Below, one piece after another: positions 21,623 through 40,136 of a stretch of DNA of 64,000 nt (its first letter is position 1; each line of letters starts with the position of its first letter). The translations under genes and the position numbers were made by a program. Origin of the DNA: Candidatus Bipolaricaulota bacterium (lineage in GTDB: Bacteria; Bipolaricaulota; Bipolaricaulia; UBA7950; UBA9294); NCBI GenBank assembly GCA_028278555.1, contig JANQEA010000035.1, positions 152,089 to 216,088 on the forward strand, read 5' to 3'. Under the pieces are notes generated by a model. It was not told the origin of the DNA. It did not search any database and saw only the letters and a list, made by a program, of their open reading frames with translations.

Positions 21623-21650
21623 TTGACAATCGAATTCCGGAGCGTATACT
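21623..21650 (+). promoter_or_regulatory. Near-consensus sigma70-type promoter
   Basis: TTGACA (21623-21628), a 16-nt spacer, then TATACT (21645-21650), about 40 nt upstream of the 21693 ATG (GGGAGAG SD). Confidence 0.5.
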
Positions 21651-21654
21651 GCAG

Positions 21655-21677
21655 AGTACTTTGCGCTGCAAAGTACT
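21655..21677 (+). promoter_or_regulatory. Perfect inverted repeat AGTACTTTGC-gct-GCAAAGTACT (candidate operator)
   Basis: Perfect 10-bp arms with a 3-bp spacer, lying between the -10 element and the RBS. It is a likely binding site for the winged-helix regulator encoded at the end of the operon. Confidence 0.5.
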
Positions 21678-21692
21678 TGACGGGAGAGAACT

Positions 21693-22352
21693 ATGAACCA
21701 ACTGAGTCTTCGAAACATCGAGCGCAAGAGCTGGCAAAGCACGATGGGCGGCGGGGTGATCGAGATCATGTTCGGGATCATGATGTTCGCCGGCGCGACG
21801 TCGTATCTCGTCTCCGATCTCGGCGCGCCATCCGCTGCGAGCACCGCTACGTTGATCGCCCTTCACGCCGTGGCGCTTCTATTGATGCTTTGGCTGCGGA
21901 AGCGATACGTCCTTCCGCGGGTCGGGCGGGCCGCCTTCTCGGCGAACCGAAAGCGGCGTCTCCATCGCATGCGGATCCTTCTGGGGATTTGCGTCGCGGT
22001 GACGGTCGCGCTCGTCGTGCTGACGGTCCTCGCAACGCGGACCGGGACCTCTCTCCTCGGGCCCGTTTCGGCCGCTCCCGTGGTTGCCGTCGTTGCCGTG
22101 ATCGTTCTCGTGCCGCTCGGCGCGCTCGCGATCTTCCTCGACTACCCTCGATTCCTCCTTCTTGGCGGATTGGTCGTCGGGGCGGAGGCGATCCTCGCGC
22201 TGCTCGACAAGTACGGTTCGCCGCCGTTCGACCGGACACTCGTCTTCGGCTCGATCGGCCTGATCAGTCTGATCCTCGGGTTGGTCATCTTCGCTCGCTT
22301 CCTCCGCCGCGTACCACGACCCGAACACGAGGTGATCGATCATGCCGGCTAG
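21693..22352 (+). CDS. Polytopic membrane protein, paralog A (unknown function)
   Basis: 219 aa with about 5-6 TM helices. It shares a motif (LPRVGRAAFSANRKRRL versus VPRIGHATFRGRRKRSL) and topology with the next gene. Confidence 0.6.
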   Translation: MNQLSLRNIERKSWQSTMGGGVIEIMFGIMMFAGATSYLVSDLGAPSAASTATLIALHAVALLLMLWLRKRYVLPRVGRAAFSANRKRRLHRMRILLGICVAVTVALVVLTVLATRTGTSLLGPVSAAPVVAVVAVIVLVPLGALAIFLDYPRFLLLGGLVVGAEAILALLDKYGSPPFDRTLVFGSIGLISLILGLVIFARFLRRVPRPEHEVIDHAG

Positions 22353-35398: not shown

Positions 35399-35913
35399 CG
35401 GCTTCCTGTCTCCAGCAAATCGATATACGCTCCGCTCACGCGATCCGCGTTTTCGATGCCGAGTGACTCCAGCAGTCGATCGGCGGTTGCCGCTCCCTCC
35501 TCGGTCGATTCTCCCTCCTCGAGAACGACCTCGAGTTCCATGAACGTGCCGAGGCCCTCGACTTCATCGAGGTGGATTCGCGTTCGGCCGATACGATAGA
35601 GGAACCGACGTTTCACGACCACTCCCCGAACCTCGAGTACCGCCGTGAGCATGCTCAGGAACGTCTCGGGATCGGTCGACCAGACAAGGGCGTACTCCGA
35701 GACCTTTGCGGACGAGTCGTCCGGCCGCTCGTAGTAGATCAGCTCGCACGCGTCCGGCGCGAGAACGCGGAGCTTCAGCCGACCGCGTGGCACGACGAAG
35801 AACGTGTCGTGCTGATCGAGGTTCTCAACCGGAGTCTCAGTCAGCGCTTCGGCGCGTCGGCGGAAGGCGTCGACCTCCCTGACGCGCGCCTTGACCTCAA
35901 CGTTTCTCGCCAT
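35395..35913 (-). CDS. CYTH-domain protein (class IV adenylyl cyclase / triphosphate tunnel family)
   Basis: EVKARV N-terminus and an ExE motif (FMELEVVLEE), 172 aa. Confidence 0.7.
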   Translation of the reverse strand: MARNVEVKARVREVDAFRRRAEALTETPVENLDQHDTFFVVPRGRLKLRVLAPDACELIYYERPDDSSAKVSEYALVWSTDPETFLSMLTAVLEVRGVVVKRRFLYRIGRTRIHLDEVEGLGTFMELEVVLEEGESTEEGAATADRLLESLGIENADRVSGAYIDLLETGSR

Positions 35914-36676
35914 CGTTCTCCTCCCACACCTTCAGCTGTCGATCGAGCGCGGCTCGGAGACTCGGATCGATTGGTTCACGATCCGGGTCTTCGCGGCGAT
36001 GGAGCACTCGAGGCCGTTCCTCCCCATAGGGAGTGAAGCGGAGTGCAACGTGCTCCAGATAGAACCGCGCGTTCCCCGGAGGCACCGGGTCGGCGTACAA
36101 CCAATCGTCGACAAGCGGTGCGCCGAGATGCGCCATCGTCGCGCGGATCTGATGATACCGCCCGGTGTGCAGCCGGAGGAGGGCATGCGCTTCGTCCTCA
36201 CGATCGGGTGTTGGTGCAAGCGCCAGGATCTCGGTGACCGCGCGTTTCCCACCGCTTCGAACGACGATCGAACGGCCGCCGCGCGTCCGAAGGTGGACCA
36301 TGTGTACGCCGATCCACCGCTCAGGCCGATCCGACAGCGTTCCATTGACCCGCGCCAAGTAGACCTTCTCCCAGGTGCGATCTCGAAGGCTCTCGTTGTG
36401 GAATCGGATCGCGTCGGCCGACAGCGCAACCACAACGATCCCTCTCGTCACCCGGTCGAGCCGATGCGGAAGCTTCGGAGCGGCATCTCGCGCCGCCGCC
36501 GCCCGGACCCGCGCGATCAGCGAGACGCCCTTCGGATCGCTCGTCAGCTCGGTCGCCATACCGGCCGGCTTGATGACGGTGAGTTCGTGCGGACCCTCGA
36601 AGAGGATCGGCAGCCCGAGCGCGTCCCAACCGACGTTCTCTCCCCCGGCGCTGGCAACAGGCTCCACGCGTTCCAC
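35897..36676 (-). CDS. RluA-family pseudouridine synthase
   Basis: HRLDRVTRGIVVVA catalytic Asp motif, 259 aa. Confidence 0.85.
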   Translation of the reverse strand: MERVEPVASAGGENVGWDALGLPILFEGPHELTVIKPAGMATELTSDPKGVSLIARVRAAAARDAAPKLPHRLDRVTRGIVVVALSADAIRFHNESLRDRTWEKVYLARVNGTLSDRPERWIGVHMVHLRTRGGRSIVVRSGGKRAVTEILALAPTPDREDEAHALLRLHTGRYHQIRATMAHLGAPLVDDWLYADPVPPGNARFYLEHVALRFTPYGEERPRVLHRREDPDREPIDPSLRAALDRQLKVWEENDGEKR

Positions 36677-37056
36677 CTCCGTCTGCCCGAGAGTCTATCG
36701 CCAGGGACCGAACGCCGAAATGGTTCGACACAAGAAAGCGAGCGCACGAGATCCCGGAGCTTCTCGCACGCTCGCCGGTGGGCGACCTTCGGTTCACGAC
36801 ATCATGGGTACTCTGCATCCTTGAAGGGCCGATGTGCGTGCCGTGATGCGGGTGTGTTCCCGCAAGCTGGCGAAAGGTGAGAGCCCGGGCCGTATTGTGC
36901 AAGGCCCAGGCTCTCGTGACTCCTCAGCGTAGGGCAACCGTAGCTCGAAGGCGTGAACCGACTGTGAACCGTCGGTGTCGTCCGTGTGTCCTGTCCATCA
37001 GCCGCGGCCCAGAGTTCGGAAAGGCTTATCCCAAGGACATTTCGCCGCTTAGGGTC

Positions 37057-37085
37057 TTGACAAGGCCTGGGGACCGGCCTATAGT
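37057..37085 (+). promoter_or_regulatory. Consensus sigma70-type promoter (TTGACA-17-TATAGT)
   Basis: TTGACA 37057-37062, an exact 17-nt spacer, then TATAGT 37080-37085, inside the 750-nt intergenic region between the divergent rluA-like and ABC SBP genes. Confidence 0.5.
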
Positions 37086-37098
37086 GGCCGCGATATGC

Positions 37099-37163
37099 TA
37101 GAAGCAGGTAGTCCTCGGATGAGCCGGATGGGTTCGAGCGGCGTCTGCTTCTATTGGTTTTGG
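37099..37163 (+). ncRNA. Candidate short transcript / attenuator: long hairpin closed by TAGAAGCAG…CTGCTTCTA followed by a TTGGTTTTGG tract
   Basis: The hairpin starts about 10 nt after the predicted TSS. A U-rich run follows the 3' arm, about 260 nt upstream of the SBP start codon. Further hairpins (GCCCGCCCGCGAG…CTCGCGGGCGG, GACGATC…GATCGTC, GGTCC-GAA-GGACC) follow in the leader. Confidence 0.3.
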
Positions 37164-37424
37164 TACGAGTCCGGCTCCCGCGCTGCACGCTAGCCACGAC
37201 TAGCTAGCAAGAGCAGCGAAGGGGCCGGAAGACGACTGCGGGCAACCGCGGTCTTTTCTTTTTGCGCGGAGGTGACAGGAAGCAGGAAGCGAGTCGGAAC
37301 AGGCCCGCCCGCGAGCGCGCTTGAGAAGCGTTCCCCTCGCGGGCGGACACGGATGGACGATCGGTGCAGATCGTCCGGGTTCGGTCCGAAGGACCACCGC
37401 AAGGATAACGCGGAAGGAGACGAA

Positions 37425-38426
37425 GTGAAACGGATCATTGCGGTTGCACTACTAGGACTTGTTGTCCTCAACGTTGGATTCGCGGCGGCGGCAGCCCCGT
37501 TGAAGATCGGGATCTGCAAGATCGTCGAACATCCGGCGCTCGATGCGGTCGAACAGGGAGTCATCGACACCCTGACGGCCGCCGGATATGTCGAAGGAGT
37601 CGATGTCGAGTACCTGATCGCCAGCGCCCAGGGAGACTTCGGCACGGCGATCTCCATCGCGCAGAACTTTCTAGCCCAGAACGTCGATCTCGTCGTCGCC
37701 ATCGCCACACCGACGGCGCAGGCGGCGGTCGAGGTCTTCCGGGGCACGGACACACCGATCATCTACGGCGCCGTGACGGATCCGGTCGGGGCCGAGCTTG
37801 TGCCGAGCGCCACCGACCCGAGCGGGAACGAAAACGTGACCGGGGTCTCTGACATGATCCCCGTCGCGGCGCACCTCCGGCTCCTGAAGGAGCTGTCACC
37901 CGACATCGTCAGGATCGGAATCGTCTACAACCCGGGAGAAGCAAACTCGGCGATCCTAACGGAGATGGCCCTCGCTGCTGCGTCGGACGTCGGTGTCGAG
38001 ATCGTCACGGCGTCGGCCGATTCGACGGCGAACGTCCCGCTCGCCGCCCAGTCGCTGATCGGACGGGTCGACGCGTTCTACGTCACCACGGACAACACGG
38101 TCGTCTCGGCGATCGACTCCGTCCTGGCGGCGTCCGAGGAAGCAAAGGTTCCTTTCCTAATGGCCGATCCGACGAGCCTCGCGCAGGCGACGCTCGCCGC
38201 CGGCTTCGACTACTACGAGCATGGCTTGACCGTCGGGCAGATTGTCTTGGACGTCCTCTCCGGAGTAGGAACCGACGAGATCCCGGTGACGTACCAGCCG
38301 ACCGCCGAGGTTCACCTGAACATCGATGCGGCAGCACGGATCGGGTTCGTCTTCTCACAGGCGGTGCTCGATCAGGCCTCGGCGATCCTGTACGGCGGGA
38401 TCATCTGGGAGAAGAAACAGCCCTAG
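37425..38426 (+). CDS. ABC transporter substrate-binding protein (ABC_sub_bind / uncharacterised ABC-type periplasmic component family)
   Basis: GTG start at 37425 with a GGAGAC SD, and a signal peptide (KRIIAVALLGLVVLNVGFAAAAA). Confidence 0.85.
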   Translation: MKRIIAVALLGLVVLNVGFAAAAAPLKIGICKIVEHPALDAVEQGVIDTLTAAGYVEGVDVEYLIASAQGDFGTAISIAQNFLAQNVDLVVAIATPTAQAAVEVFRGTDTPIIYGAVTDPVGAELVPSATDPSGNENVTGVSDMIPVAAHLRLLKELSPDIVRIGIVYNPGEANSAILTEMALAAASDVGVEIVTASADSTANVPLAAQSLIGRVDAFYVTTDNTVVSAIDSVLAASEEAKVPFLMADPTSLAQATLAAGFDYYEHGLTVGQIVLDVLSGVGTDEIPVTYQPTAEVHLNIDAAARIGFVFSQAVLDQASAILYGGIIWEKKQP

Positions 38427-38454
38427 TACCGGGGCAAGCAGCGACGGAGGAACG

Positions 38455-39354
38455 ATGGCTGTCCTGTGGATTCACGCGGTCGAACAAGGCCTCGCCTACG
38501 GCATCGCAGCGCTGGGTGTCTTTCTAACCTATCGCGTGCTGAAGTTCCCCGACCTGACGGTCGATGGGAGTTTCGTGACCGGGGCGGCCATCGCTTCCGT
38601 CCTCCTGATCCGATACGGCGTCGACCCGTTCACGGTCCTTCTGGTCGCGTTCGTCGCCGGAGGGATCGCCGGATTGATCACCGGGCTCCTCAACACGCGT
38701 TTGGGGATCACGAACCTCCTCGCCGGCGTGTTGACGATGATCATGCTCTACTCGATCAATCTGCGGATCATGGGACGTCCGAACCTGTCGCTTCTCCGAG
38801 TCTCGACGGCGACGCGGATCGTCGATGCCGCCTGGTCGCCGCTCGGCGCGTTCTCCGTCCTCGCGTTCATCGCGATCCTGACGATTGCGATCAAGTTCCT
38901 TCTCGACGCCTTCCTTCGCACGGAAGTCGGCTTCGCGCTCCGCGCGACCGGCGACAGCGAACGGATGATCACGGCGCAGGGGGTGAATACGAAGACGATG
39001 AAGATCCTTGGATTGGCGCTTTCCAACGGGCTTGTCGCGCTCTCCGGCGCGTTGGTCGCCCAGTACAGCGGCTTCGCCGACGTCGGGATGGGACTCGGGA
39101 CGATCGTCACCGGGCTCGCTGCAGTGATTATCGGTGGAACGCTGATCCGATCGAGTCGCGTCGGATGGATGACCGCCGGCGTTCTCCTCGGTTCGCTCGT
39201 CTACCGGATCGCCGTCATCCTCGCCCTCCGATACGGCTACGTCATCGGGTTCCAGGCGAGCGACTTGAAGCTGATCACGTCGCTTCTCGTCATCCTCGCC
39301 CTCGTTGTCCCGTACCTTCGGGAGCGGCGGATGCGGAAGGTGAGCGCATGCTGA
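38455..39354 (+). CDS. ABC transporter permease (companion of the ABC_sub_bind system)
   Basis: ATG at 38455 with a GGAGGAAC SD, and about 8 TM helices. Confidence 0.85.
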   Translation: MAVLWIHAVEQGLAYGIAALGVFLTYRVLKFPDLTVDGSFVTGAAIASVLLIRYGVDPFTVLLVAFVAGGIAGLITGLLNTRLGITNLLAGVLTMIMLYSINLRIMGRPNLSLLRVSTATRIVDAAWSPLGAFSVLAFIAILTIAIKFLLDAFLRTEVGFALRATGDSERMITAQGVNTKTMKILGLALSNGLVALSGALVAQYSGFADVGMGLGTIVTGLAAVIIGGTLIRSSRVGWMTAGVLLGSLVYRIAVILALRYGYVIGFQASDLKLITSLLVILALVVPYLRERRMRKVSAC

Positions 39355-40136
39355 GCCTCGAACGCCTGTCGAAGACTTTCCAGACCGCCGCCGATCGGGT
39401 CGTCGCGATTCGCGAGACCGACCTGCACCTGGAAGAGGGAGACTTCCTGACGATCATCGGATCGAACGGTGCCGGGAAGAGCACGCTCCTCAACCTGATC
39501 GCGGGAAGCTATCCGCCGACCTCCGGGCGGATCGTGCTAAGAGGCGTCGACTTGACCGGTATCCCGGCCCATCGGAGGGCACGGCGGATCGGTCGGATCG
39601 TTCAGGATCCGCTCGCCGGGACGGCCCCTTCGATGACGGTCGCAGAGAACCTTGCCCTGGCGATGAAACGGGGCCGCCGGTCCCTTCGGCTGGCCCTCCC
39701 TCGAAGGCTCCGCCGCCGCTTCCGCGAGCAACTCACCGCCCTGAACGTCGGGTTGGAGGATCGCCTCCGATGCCGGGTCGATCTCCTCTCCGGTGGGGAG
39801 CGCCAGGCCCTCGCCGTCCTGATGGCCACGCTCGTCCCGCCCGAAGTTCTGCTCCTCGACGAGCACACCGCAGCGCTCGATCCGAGCAACGCTGCGATGA
39901 TCGTCCGACTGACGCGATCGTTCGTCGAACGTCTCAATCTGACGACCCTGATGGTCACCCACAACATGGAGCAGGCGATCGACGTCGGAACGCGTCTGAT
40001 CATGATGCACAAGGGGGAGATCATCGAGGAGCTCCACGGGGTGGAGAAGAGCCAGGCGACCGTTCCACAGCTCGTCGACCTCTTCTCGCAGCACCACGTC
40101 GTCGACGACGAGCTTCTCCTCGAACGGGTCGTCTAG
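39348..40136 (+). CDS. ABC transporter ATP-binding protein
   Basis: GSNGAGKST Walker A, LSGGERQAL signature and LLLDEHTAALD Walker B. It overlaps the permease stop by 7 nt. Confidence 0.9.
   Translation: MLSLERLSKTFQTAADRVVAIRETDLHLEEGDFLTIIGSNGAGKSTLLNLIAGSYPPTSGRIVLRGVDLTGIPAHRRARRIGRIVQDPLAGTAPSMTVAENLALAMKRGRRSLRLALPRRLRRRFREQLTALNVGLEDRLRCRVDLLSGGERQALAVLMATLVPPEVLLLDEHTAALDPSNAAMIVRLTRSFVERLNLTTLMVTHNMEQAIDVGTRLIMMHKGEIIEELHGVEKSQATVPQLVDLFSQHHVVDDELLLERVV

Follow-up and report, generated by a model that had tools for sequence, protein, structure and literature searches.

A probable leader-peptide attenuator with mixed Phe/Tyr/Trp codons upstream of an ABC importer operon in Bipolaricaulota

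The stretch analysed here (64,000 nt of contig JANQEA010000035.1 from a Candidatus Bipolaricaulota bacterium, 63% GC, referred to as the window) contains an intergenic gap of 748 nt between two divergent genes, a minus-strand PseudoU_synth_2 gene (35897-36676) and a plus-strand gene for a substrate-binding protein (SBP) of the family PF04392. The latter opens an operon on the plus strand (37425-40136), which was delimited by Pfam matches and gene calls and comprises the genes for the SBP (37425-38426; PF04392), the permease (38455-39354; PF02653) and the ATPase (39348-40136; ABC_tran) of an ATP-binding cassette (ABC) importer. The Shine-Dalgarno sequence (SD) of the SBP gene, GGAAGGAG (37412-37419), and its GTG start codon at 37425 form a plus-strand initiation region (37412-37427) that is invariant in the alignment of related loci, and the gene call agrees with a public metagenome contig carrying the SBP protein. 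The gap harbours a conserved leader, which is described below and which probably controls transcription of the importer operon through translation of a short, aromatic-rich leader peptide.

A sigma-70-type promoter on the plus strand (37057-37085) consists of the -35 box TTGACA (37057-37062), a spacer of 17 nt and the -10 box TATAGT (37080-37085), and matches the consensus at 11 of 12 positions. Two matches of this quality are present in the whole window, and the 17-nt spacer is found only at 37057-37085. Both hexamers are invariant in an alignment of eight related genomes, while a TTGAC-type -35 box and a TATAGT- or TATGAT-type -10 box are visible upstream of most other leaders. An earlier note on this DNA had named this promoter as the best match of the window, a choice that its consensus score, spacing and invariance bear out. 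No second promoter-like site was found between positions 35800 and 38500.

In reference genomes, the closest relatives of the SBP (89-46% identity) are encoded by metagenome-assembled genomes (MAGs) labelled Candidatus Bipolaricaulota/Acetothermia or 'uncultured Thermotogae', and proteobacterial homologues follow at 46% identity or less. Eight syntenic genomes align from the -35 box to the SBP start codon, with the -35 and -10 boxes, an ATG, the motif GCTTCTATTGGTTTTGG, the terminator and the SD being conserved or invariant. The wider comparison took in 27 loci from Bipolaricaulota-type genomes and ~50 loci from metagenomes, the majority being Bipolaricaulota MAGs or metagenome contigs, and made use of 80 leaders, 71 distinct leaders, 70 distinct open reading frames (ORFs) and an alignment of 57 sequences. 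The order promoter, ORF, hairpins P1 and P2, terminator and SBP gene was observed at each of the 80 related loci whose upstream sequence was long enough, which comprise 71 distinct leaders. At loci with 300 nt or more of upstream sequence, the promoter and an aromatic ORF accompany every SBP that is at least ~47% identical to that of the window, and the leader is absent upstream of the proteobacterial-type SBP homologues examined (identity of 46% or less). The gene upstream of the leader is rluA-like in the window, a CYTH-domain gene at locus L003 (where rluA is missing) and a divergent gene elsewhere; because it differs between loci, the leader travels with the SBP operon.

The leader ORF (37095-37193, plus strand; 32 codons plus TAG; MLEAGSPRMSRMGSSGVCFYWFWYESGSRAAR) is leaderless and was recognized by its conserved ATG, frame and indel pattern. 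Its ATG is located 9 nt downstream of the -10 box in the window and in 46 of the 70 distinct ORFs. In the relatives (27 loci read), a small ORF starts at an ATG that follows the -10 box by 8-10 nt, and an ORF of 23-34 codons is found at every related locus. Positions 37149-37166 (plus strand) hold six consecutive aromatic codons, TTC TAT TGG TTT TGG TAC, which specify Phe-Tyr-Trp-Phe-Trp-Tyr. Four to seven Phe/Tyr/Trp codons are clustered within seven codons in all 70 distinct ORFs, and the most conserved 'RNA motif' of the leader is this codon run in a leaderless small ORF. In the 57-sequence alignment, the distance from ATG to TGG is a multiple of three in every sequence (57/57); gaps within the ORF span 3, 6 or 9 columns, except for one single-column gap directly after the aromatic run, and gaps downstream of the ORF are of arbitrary length. 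Synonymous aromatic codons interchange among the 70 ORFs (TTC 80/TTT 60, TAT 78/TAC 38, TGG 122). Because spacing and indels both follow multiples of three and synonymous aromatic codons are swapped, the ORF has to be regarded as coding, and on this sequence evidence 37095-37193 encodes a leaderless leader peptide that is predicted to be translated. No second aromatic leader was found elsewhere in the 64-kb window.

The order and identity of the residues in the run vary among leaders (FYWFWY, FFWYW, CWYWF, YFGWYFYF, YYYWF), as does the distance from the run to the stop codon (1, 3 or 8-9 codons). A compact type of leader has very different nucleotides and the same logic, with ORFs ending in ...FYGYWFA*, ...YFGWYFYFV* or ...SWYWFI*.

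Three hairpins, namely P1, P2 and the terminator, make up the fold of 37090-37265, which has a z-score of -4.1 relative to shuffled sequences; for the leader, folding z-scores of -4.1 to -4.5 were obtained. P1 (37099-37153, plus strand), which is based on the minimum-free-energy fold and on covariation, pairs codons 2-9 of the ORF with a stretch that runs through the first two aromatic codons. In the 57-sequence alignment, which is not a structural one, 64.6% of the P1 cells are paired and 15 of 16 pairs have changed on both sides; in an alignment-free test, its cognate duplex is 5.5 kcal/mol better than non-cognate combinations. P1 is likely to act as a pause hairpin for RNA polymerase and to sequester the 5' end of the transcript.

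P2 (37170-37229, plus strand), the putative translation-sensitive hairpin, was missed by the earlier note and is defined by covariation, duplex energies and conserved geometry. It begins 3 nt past the aromatic run and finishes 4-5 nt short of the terminator stem; its 5' arm is made up of the last eight codons of the ORF, and the stop codon TAG (37191-37193) is located near the apex. In its outer helix, 86% of cells are paired and 15 of 15 pairs have changed on both sides, and the cognate duplex is favoured by 10.4 kcal/mol over non-cognate ones. All 71 distinct leaders share the succession of aromatic run, 0-9 nt, P2 (29-66 nt), 0-6 nt, terminator and U-tract. The stop codon directly precedes P2 in the compact type and otherwise falls at the base of P2 or ~15-24 nt inside the 5' arm (+21 in the window).

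The intrinsic terminator (37234-37263, plus strand) is composed of the stem GACTGCGG/CCGCGGTC (37234-37253) with the loop GCAA and the U-tract TTTTCTTTTT (37254-37263). A canonical terminator is present at the matching position in 80 of 80 leaders, its U-tract starting 128-163 nt after the ATG and its stability ranging from -15 to -38 kcal/mol. The stem is paired in 99.8% of cells of the 57-sequence alignment and shows GC/AU compensatory double changes, with a cognate advantage of 6.4 kcal/mol in the duplex test. Taken together, P1, P2 and the terminator reach a covariation score of 0.300, compared with at most 0.14 for controls with slid partners; the three are real, co-evolving helices. In compact leaders, the SD and start codon of the SBP gene follow within ~6-19 nt of the terminator. 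As this leaves no room for a promoter, the operon must be transcribed through the terminator, which separates the leader ORF from the first structural gene, with no intervening promoter.

These assignments alter the picture given by the earlier note in several respects. The hairpin it placed at 37099-37153 is real, co-varies and corresponds to P1, whereas the U-rich tract behind it, TTGGTTTTGG, which had been taken for the tail of a terminator, consists of the codons TGG TTT TGG (Trp-Phe-Trp) and is in frame with the ATG in 57 of 57 aligned leaders. P1 plus TTGGTTTTGG was thus rejected as a terminator: the tail is coding, G's break it up, and the genuine intrinsic terminator is located 80 nt farther downstream. 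Both this terminator and the leader ORF had been overlooked in the earlier note. Since TTGGTTTTGG is coding, the proposed RNA of ~70 nt is unsupported. The suggestion that the SBP gene is subject to attenuation fared better, being supported by the conserved promoter, the intrinsic terminator and the lack of a second promoter in the region searched.

Several observations concern the reading frames around the stop codon. TAG occurs in all three frames within 17 nt at the apex of P2 (37191-37207), at 37191 in frame, at 37201 in the +1 frame and at 37205 in the +2 frame, and a +1-frame TAG ~10 nt past the in-frame stop is common in long leaders. The cluster may catch ribosomes that shift frame at hungry aromatic codons, or it may be a mere consequence of CTAG palindromes; three-frame stops inside P2 as a general frameshift safeguard were rejected, as they are present in the window and not universal among leaders. 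A slippery heptamer that could combine with P2 in a -1 frameshift site is not present. The GTG at 37272, considered as the start of a long N-terminal extension of the SBP or of a second upstream ORF, was dismissed because its frame is not conserved and is interrupted by 1-nt indels in relatives.

The importer belongs to a family with characterized relatives. The PDB homologues of its SBP are 3LKV (2e-62), 6HNI/CD0873 (1.8e-45) and 3LFT (6e-41), whose crystal structures contain bound Phe, Tyr and Trp, respectively (PMC6816091). That study describes two specificity positions in CD0873, VC_1101 and SP1069; there, the SBP of the window carries Asp (near MADP; Glu-263 in CD0873) and Tyr (in FDYY), a pair that by alignment is closer to the tyrosine-binding CD0873 (Glu, Tyr) than to the tryptophan-binding SP1069 (Ala, Gln) and that suggests a pocket of the Tyr/Phe type. 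Aromatic amino acids are, judging from these similarities, the likely substrate class. The Streptococcus suis homologue TrpX is part of the Trp uptake system trpXYZ, which is induced at low Trp by a T-box controlling a leader terminator (PMC9382623). With its Phe/Tyr/Trp codons upstream of a transporter of this family, the leader would therefore be a ribosome-based functional equivalent of the trpXYZ T-box.

We consider the element to be, most probably, a ribosome-mediated leader-peptide transcription attenuator of an aromatic amino-acid ABC importer. It possesses a short ORF with its own start signal, as leader-peptide attenuators do, and a run of codons for the amino acids that the operon would supply. 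Because its most conserved motif is the aromatic codon run, the sensor would be the translating ribosome rather than a ligand-binding aptamer. Transcription is predicted to start ~7-9 nt past TATAGT, which would put the ATG at 37095 at or beside the 5' end and lead to leaderless translation. With charged tRNA-Phe, -Tyr and -Trp in plentiful supply, the ribosome would pass the aromatic codons and reach the stop codon inside P2, where it would keep P2 melted while the polymerase makes the terminator; the terminator would then form and a transcript of ~170 nt would be released. If any of the three were scarce, the ribosome would stall on the aromatic run, P2 would fold and termination would be suppressed, so that the SBP-permease-ATPase operon would be transcribed. 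The ribosome footprint was taken as reaching ~12 nt 3' of the A-site codon; combined with the conserved geometry, this implies that P2 would be intact with a ribosome stalled early in the aromatic run and mostly or fully melted with a ribosome at the stop codon. We infer from this arrangement the direction of the response (induction by starvation) and the way in which P2 would be coupled to the terminator.

As to this coupling, P2 and the terminator co-evolve independently of each other. Given an attenuator, the leading candidate is a steric coupling ('tug-of-war'), with the folded P2 competing for the exit channel of RNA polymerase, an idea drawn by analogy that we hold to have somewhat less than an even chance. 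It is favoured because no overlapping antiterminator was found and because P2 always ends 0-6 nt upstream of the terminator; as in tug-of-war elements, a stable structure precedes the terminator with a spacer of 0-6 nt (71 of 71 distinct leaders) and without sequence overlap. That the whole chain applies, with the ribosome deciding the folding of a free-standing P2 located 0-6 nt upstream of an autonomous terminator and the folded P2 sterically blocking that terminator, is more doubtful and is put forward tentatively.

A number of results weigh against this reading. No test uncovered an antiterminator that shares nucleotides with the terminator, the hallmark of a classical attenuator. Equilibrium folding with ribosome-masked nucleotides (14 leaders) keeps the terminator at P>0.9 with the ribosome at the aromatic codons and at the stop codon, and lowers its probability only with the ribosome on the first ~10 codons. 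On transcripts truncated before the 3' arm of the terminator, the computed sequestration of its 5' arm amounts to -3.4 kcal/mol in the stalled state, compared with -3.4 kcal/mol at the stop codon and -3.7 kcal/mol with the ribosome absent. By mutual information, the variable positions of the terminator co-vary only with each other and have no other complementary column, and an alignment-wide scan for alternative helices returned only short G/U-rich or purine/pyrimidine matches. The duplexes A:E, A:F, B:E, X:E, C:E, D:F, A:C and B:D show no cognate-specific gain, nor do the equivalent duplexes in compact leaders. Simple hairpins had little effect on stable terminators in tug-of-war assays (10.64898/2026.06.17.733018), which counts here because the terminators of these leaders are stable. 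In addition, P1, at a distance of 4 nt from the ATG at the 5' end, could interfere with leaderless initiation, and the attenuator model does not account for a conserved SD-like motif, GGAGGTGA, or for a structured domain downstream of the terminator.

The first alternative is a classical attenuator of the trp/phe type with an overlapping antiterminator that was overlooked, or with a kinetic intermediate invisible to nearest-neighbour folding, for instance a pairing of CCCGCG in the middle of the P2 5' arm (37176-37181) with TGCGGG at the top of the terminator 5' arm (37237-37242). Pairing between columns 95-99 and 162-166 is possible in 73% of the cells of alignment A3. The sequence of the terminator 5' arm is repeated in the P2 3' arm (GACTGCGGAGG) of L016-type leaders, which makes strand exchange conceivable. 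The purine-rich and pyrimidine-rich arms are generically complementary as well (A:C -14.9 and B:D -14.6 kcal/mol). Against such a helix, the cognate C:E duplex is 1.0 kcal/mol worse than non-cognate ones, P2 is not altered correspondingly in leaders with the terminator GACTACAGG, sequestration of the terminator 5' arm yields the same energy in the stalled, stop-codon and ribosome-free states, and compact leaders are devoid of such complementarity. On balance, a classical antiterminator is unlikely.

Considerably less probable is an independent small gene, in which the ~170-nt RNA would function as the template of an aromatic-rich micropeptide or as a trans-acting small RNA (sRNA) and the importer would be expressed through constitutive leakage of the terminator. 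The unit does have its own strong promoter and strong terminator, the N-terminal M-x-E-A and the C-terminal SGFSAAR of the peptide are fairly conserved, and trans-acting sRNAs derived from attenuators are known, such as rnTrpL (PMC6614838). Yet conservation of the peptide outside the aromatic run coincides with the arms of P1 and P2 and is explained by RNA structure; peptide length and sequence differ widely between long and compact leaders, which nevertheless share the aromatic run and its spacing from P2. The unit, moreover, is never found apart from the SBP gene in ~80 loci, and the only transcription route into compact-type operons passes through the terminator. Of the sRNA proposed in the earlier note, a weak form thus stands, in that terminated transcripts of ~170 nt would accumulate and could act in trans. 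As candidates for an RNA of this length, 6S RNA, signal recognition particle RNA and other housekeeping RNAs were rejected, the region forming three separate hairpins rather than a rod and matching no Rfam family.

Nascent-peptide arrest of the TnaC type, in which the aromatic motif in the exit tunnel would sense the free amino acid and the importer would respond to its presence, is more improbable still. In essentially every leader, Trp is flanked by Phe or Tyr, and the stop codon of compact leaders follows 1-2 codons past the motif, as expected for arrest at termination. The distance between motif and stop varies among leaders, however, rather than being fixed as would be the motif and distance of an arrest peptide, and as Phe, Tyr and Trp occur in no set order or composition, the sensing of codons is a better fit than a defined motif that binds in the tunnel. 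It would also be less obvious for an importer to be induced when its substrate is abundant inside the cell, and starvation is what induces the homologous trpXYZ system.

Rfam searches of the whole window at gathering thresholds returned only two transfer RNAs (tRNAs). At E<=10, the region 36600-37500 gave only chance-level matches to microRNA, long non-coding RNA, counter-transcribed RNA and twister-sister models, all with E>5, and no match to Trp_leader, Phe_leader or other amino-acid leader models, to which the sequence family is unrelated. A dedicated tRNA and transfer-messenger RNA search gave nothing in the leader region. A riboswitch or T-box-like sensor, in which P1/P2 or the downstream domain would bind a metabolite or tRNA directly, is the least probable alternative and highly unlikely, for although the leader is highly structured (z = -4.1 to -4.5), its co-varying 3' domain has no assigned function and the homologous streptococcal transporter is under T-box control, no Rfam family matches on either strand (gathering thresholds or E<=10), promoter, ATG, aromatic codons, stop codon and terminator account for those nucleotides that are invariant in the 5' domain, the interiors of P1 and P2 vary freely, and the 3' domain is missing from many functional-looking leaders. 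The riboswitch-like sensor envisaged in the earlier note, which had asked for such a scan, accordingly found no riboswitch, T-box or leader family to support it.

The proposed attenuator resembles the E. coli trpL, pheL and pheM leaders in its short ORF with codons for the regulated amino acids, in the intrinsic terminator before the first structural gene and in a hairpin that starts a few nt past the regulatory codons and would be masked by a terminating but not by a stalled ribosome. An upstream hairpin (1:2 there, P1 here) is likewise placed to pause RNA polymerase, and P2 holds the position of the 2:3 hairpin of trpL. In contrast to these leaders, the codons are mixed (Phe/Tyr/Trp), the regulated operon encodes an ABC importer instead of biosynthetic enzymes or a synthetase, the ORF is leaderless, the translation-sensitive hairpin and the terminator have no nucleotides in common, the host belongs to a candidate phylum and there is no match to Trp_leader or Phe_leader.

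Mixed aromatic leader peptides have a precedent in the aroR leader of Corynebacterium glutamicum, where a Phe-Tyr-Phe leader peptide precedes aroF and ribosome stalling controls transcription (PMC11802643). In the ilvB leader of the same species, ~1 nt separates the start codon from the transcription start, and the region where the ribosome lands is covered by the conserved hairpin H1 (PMC11857589), an arrangement similar to that of the ATG and P1. Unlike the present leader, both precede biosynthetic genes, employ overlapping antiterminators and terminators and are unrelated in sequence, and aroR has no Trp codons. The Trp T-box of trpXYZ in S. suis and Streptococcus pneumoniae regulates the same transporter family, with a PF04392 SBP homologous to 3LFT, and also acts through an intrinsic terminator in the leader, being induced at low charged tRNA-Trp (PMC9382623). 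That RNA binds uncharged tRNA directly, whereas the sensor here would be the translating ribosome, and no Rfam T-box match was obtained.

A layout with a stable structure 0-6 nt upstream of a self-contained terminator, without overlap, was described for tug-of-war riboswitches (Bushhouse, Fu and Lucks, bioRxiv 2026), where it suppresses termination in a spacer-dependent manner. Such elements account for ~10% of natural ZTP riboswitches, and the authors attribute the effect to competition for the exit channel of RNA polymerase (10.64898/2026.06.17.733018). In those riboswitches the structure is an aptamer with tertiary folding that is stabilized by a ligand; here, by contrast, it would be a plain long hairpin that a ribosome either melts or leaves intact, and the preprint describes no tug-of-war element under ribosome control (10.64898/2026.06.17.733018). 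Ribosome-mediated transcription attenuation of an ABC transporter by a leader peptide is also reported for bmrB-bmrCD of Bacillus subtilis, which differs in that bmrCD is reported to encode a multidrug transporter activated under antibiotic pressure (PMC4191407).

Further conserved features surround this core. The SD-like motif GGAGGTGA (37268-37275, plus strand) follows directly after the terminator, is conserved in nearly all long-type leaders and is kept even where the rest of the 3' domain differs. In the form GGAGGTGA or RGGRGGTGAT, it is a near-perfect complement of the anti-SD sequence. No start codon is found 4-12 nt downstream of the motif in any leader, and its assignment as the SD of a hidden ORF was rejected because no start codon is in reach. 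In compact leaders (e.g. 3833-3844 in L019), an SD-like motif is located inside the leader ORF, ~8 codons ahead of the aromatic run, where its conservation concerns the nucleotides and not the encoded amino acids.

The structured 3' domain of the leader (37303-37395, plus strand) comprises the hairpins P3 (37303-37348), P4 (37355-37376) and P5 (37383-37395) and is conserved in 21 aligned leaders of closer relatives. Compensatory change was counted in P3 (UA 9/CG 7 at one pair) and was seen by eye, uncounted, in the alignments of P4; the downstream hairpins mentioned in the earlier note are therefore real. P3-P5 are absent from compact and L013-type leaders, and since many leaders that lack them are otherwise complete, the domain appears to be accessory. 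P3 was rejected as a dispersed repeat of the repetitive extragenic palindrome (REP) type, as no repeats of it occur in the window. In the L006 group, P5 is formed instead by pairing of GTCCTTGC with the conserved GCAAGGAT just upstream of the SD. Between terminator and SBP gene, L016, L017, L018, L028, L128 and L129 carry two to three tandem P3-like hairpins (GGCCCGTCCGC...GCGGACGGGC) and repeated GTGCC...GGCAC hairpins, a pattern that suggests local duplication of leader hairpins.

On the other side of the promoter, a stem at 36879-36915, also anticipated by the earlier note, is real and conserved in the nearest relatives. Together with its flank (36879-36930), it reads GAGAGCCCGGGCC...GGCCCAGGCTCTC, with the invariant 3' flank GTGACTCCTCAGCGT and AAGGTGAG on the 5' side. 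L002/L083, L003/L085/L101, L084 and L133 retain it, separated from the leader promoter by 50-140 nt, and loci without the rluA-like gene still carry it ahead of the divergent minus-strand operon (rluA-like/CYTH/GNAT/pyruvate kinase). A 1-nt indel speaks against coding, and no Rfam family matches. The upstream stem is not part of the attenuator.

Two observations relate to promoters of other genes. At ~250-450 nt upstream of the SBP start in L004 and L012-L018, a divergent gene is preceded by an inverted repeat, TTAGCACTC-N9-..TGCTAA, similar to the controlling inverted repeat of chaperone expression (CIRCE), which we take to be the kind of operator found at hrcA-type heat-shock loci. The other 11-of-12 promoter match of the window, TTGACA-16-TATACT (within 21623-21696), is followed by the perfect palindrome GTACTTTGCGCTGCAAAGTAC, an SD and an ATG at 21694; going by its sequence and placement, the palindrome resembles an operator for a repressor, placed where transcription of a membrane-protein gene would start.

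The locus also carries a caution for the annotation of such regions, in that a 'hairpin plus U-rich tail' can be coding and a stretch rich in TGG, TTT and TAT can represent regulatory codons. If the non-overlapping coupling is true, it would carry antitermination without overlap beyond ligand-binding aptamers, to translation-sensing leaders of a candidate phylum, and searches for attenuators that demand an overlap of terminator and antiterminator would miss a whole class of elements. No cis-regulatory element of Bipolaricaulota was found described in the literature searched. The proposed attenuator could merge the supply of Phe, Tyr and Trp into a single signal within one leader, and it would give a regulatory logic and a likely substrate class to an uncharacterized ABC importer across Bipolaricaulota (Acetothermia/OP1), an uncultured phylum.

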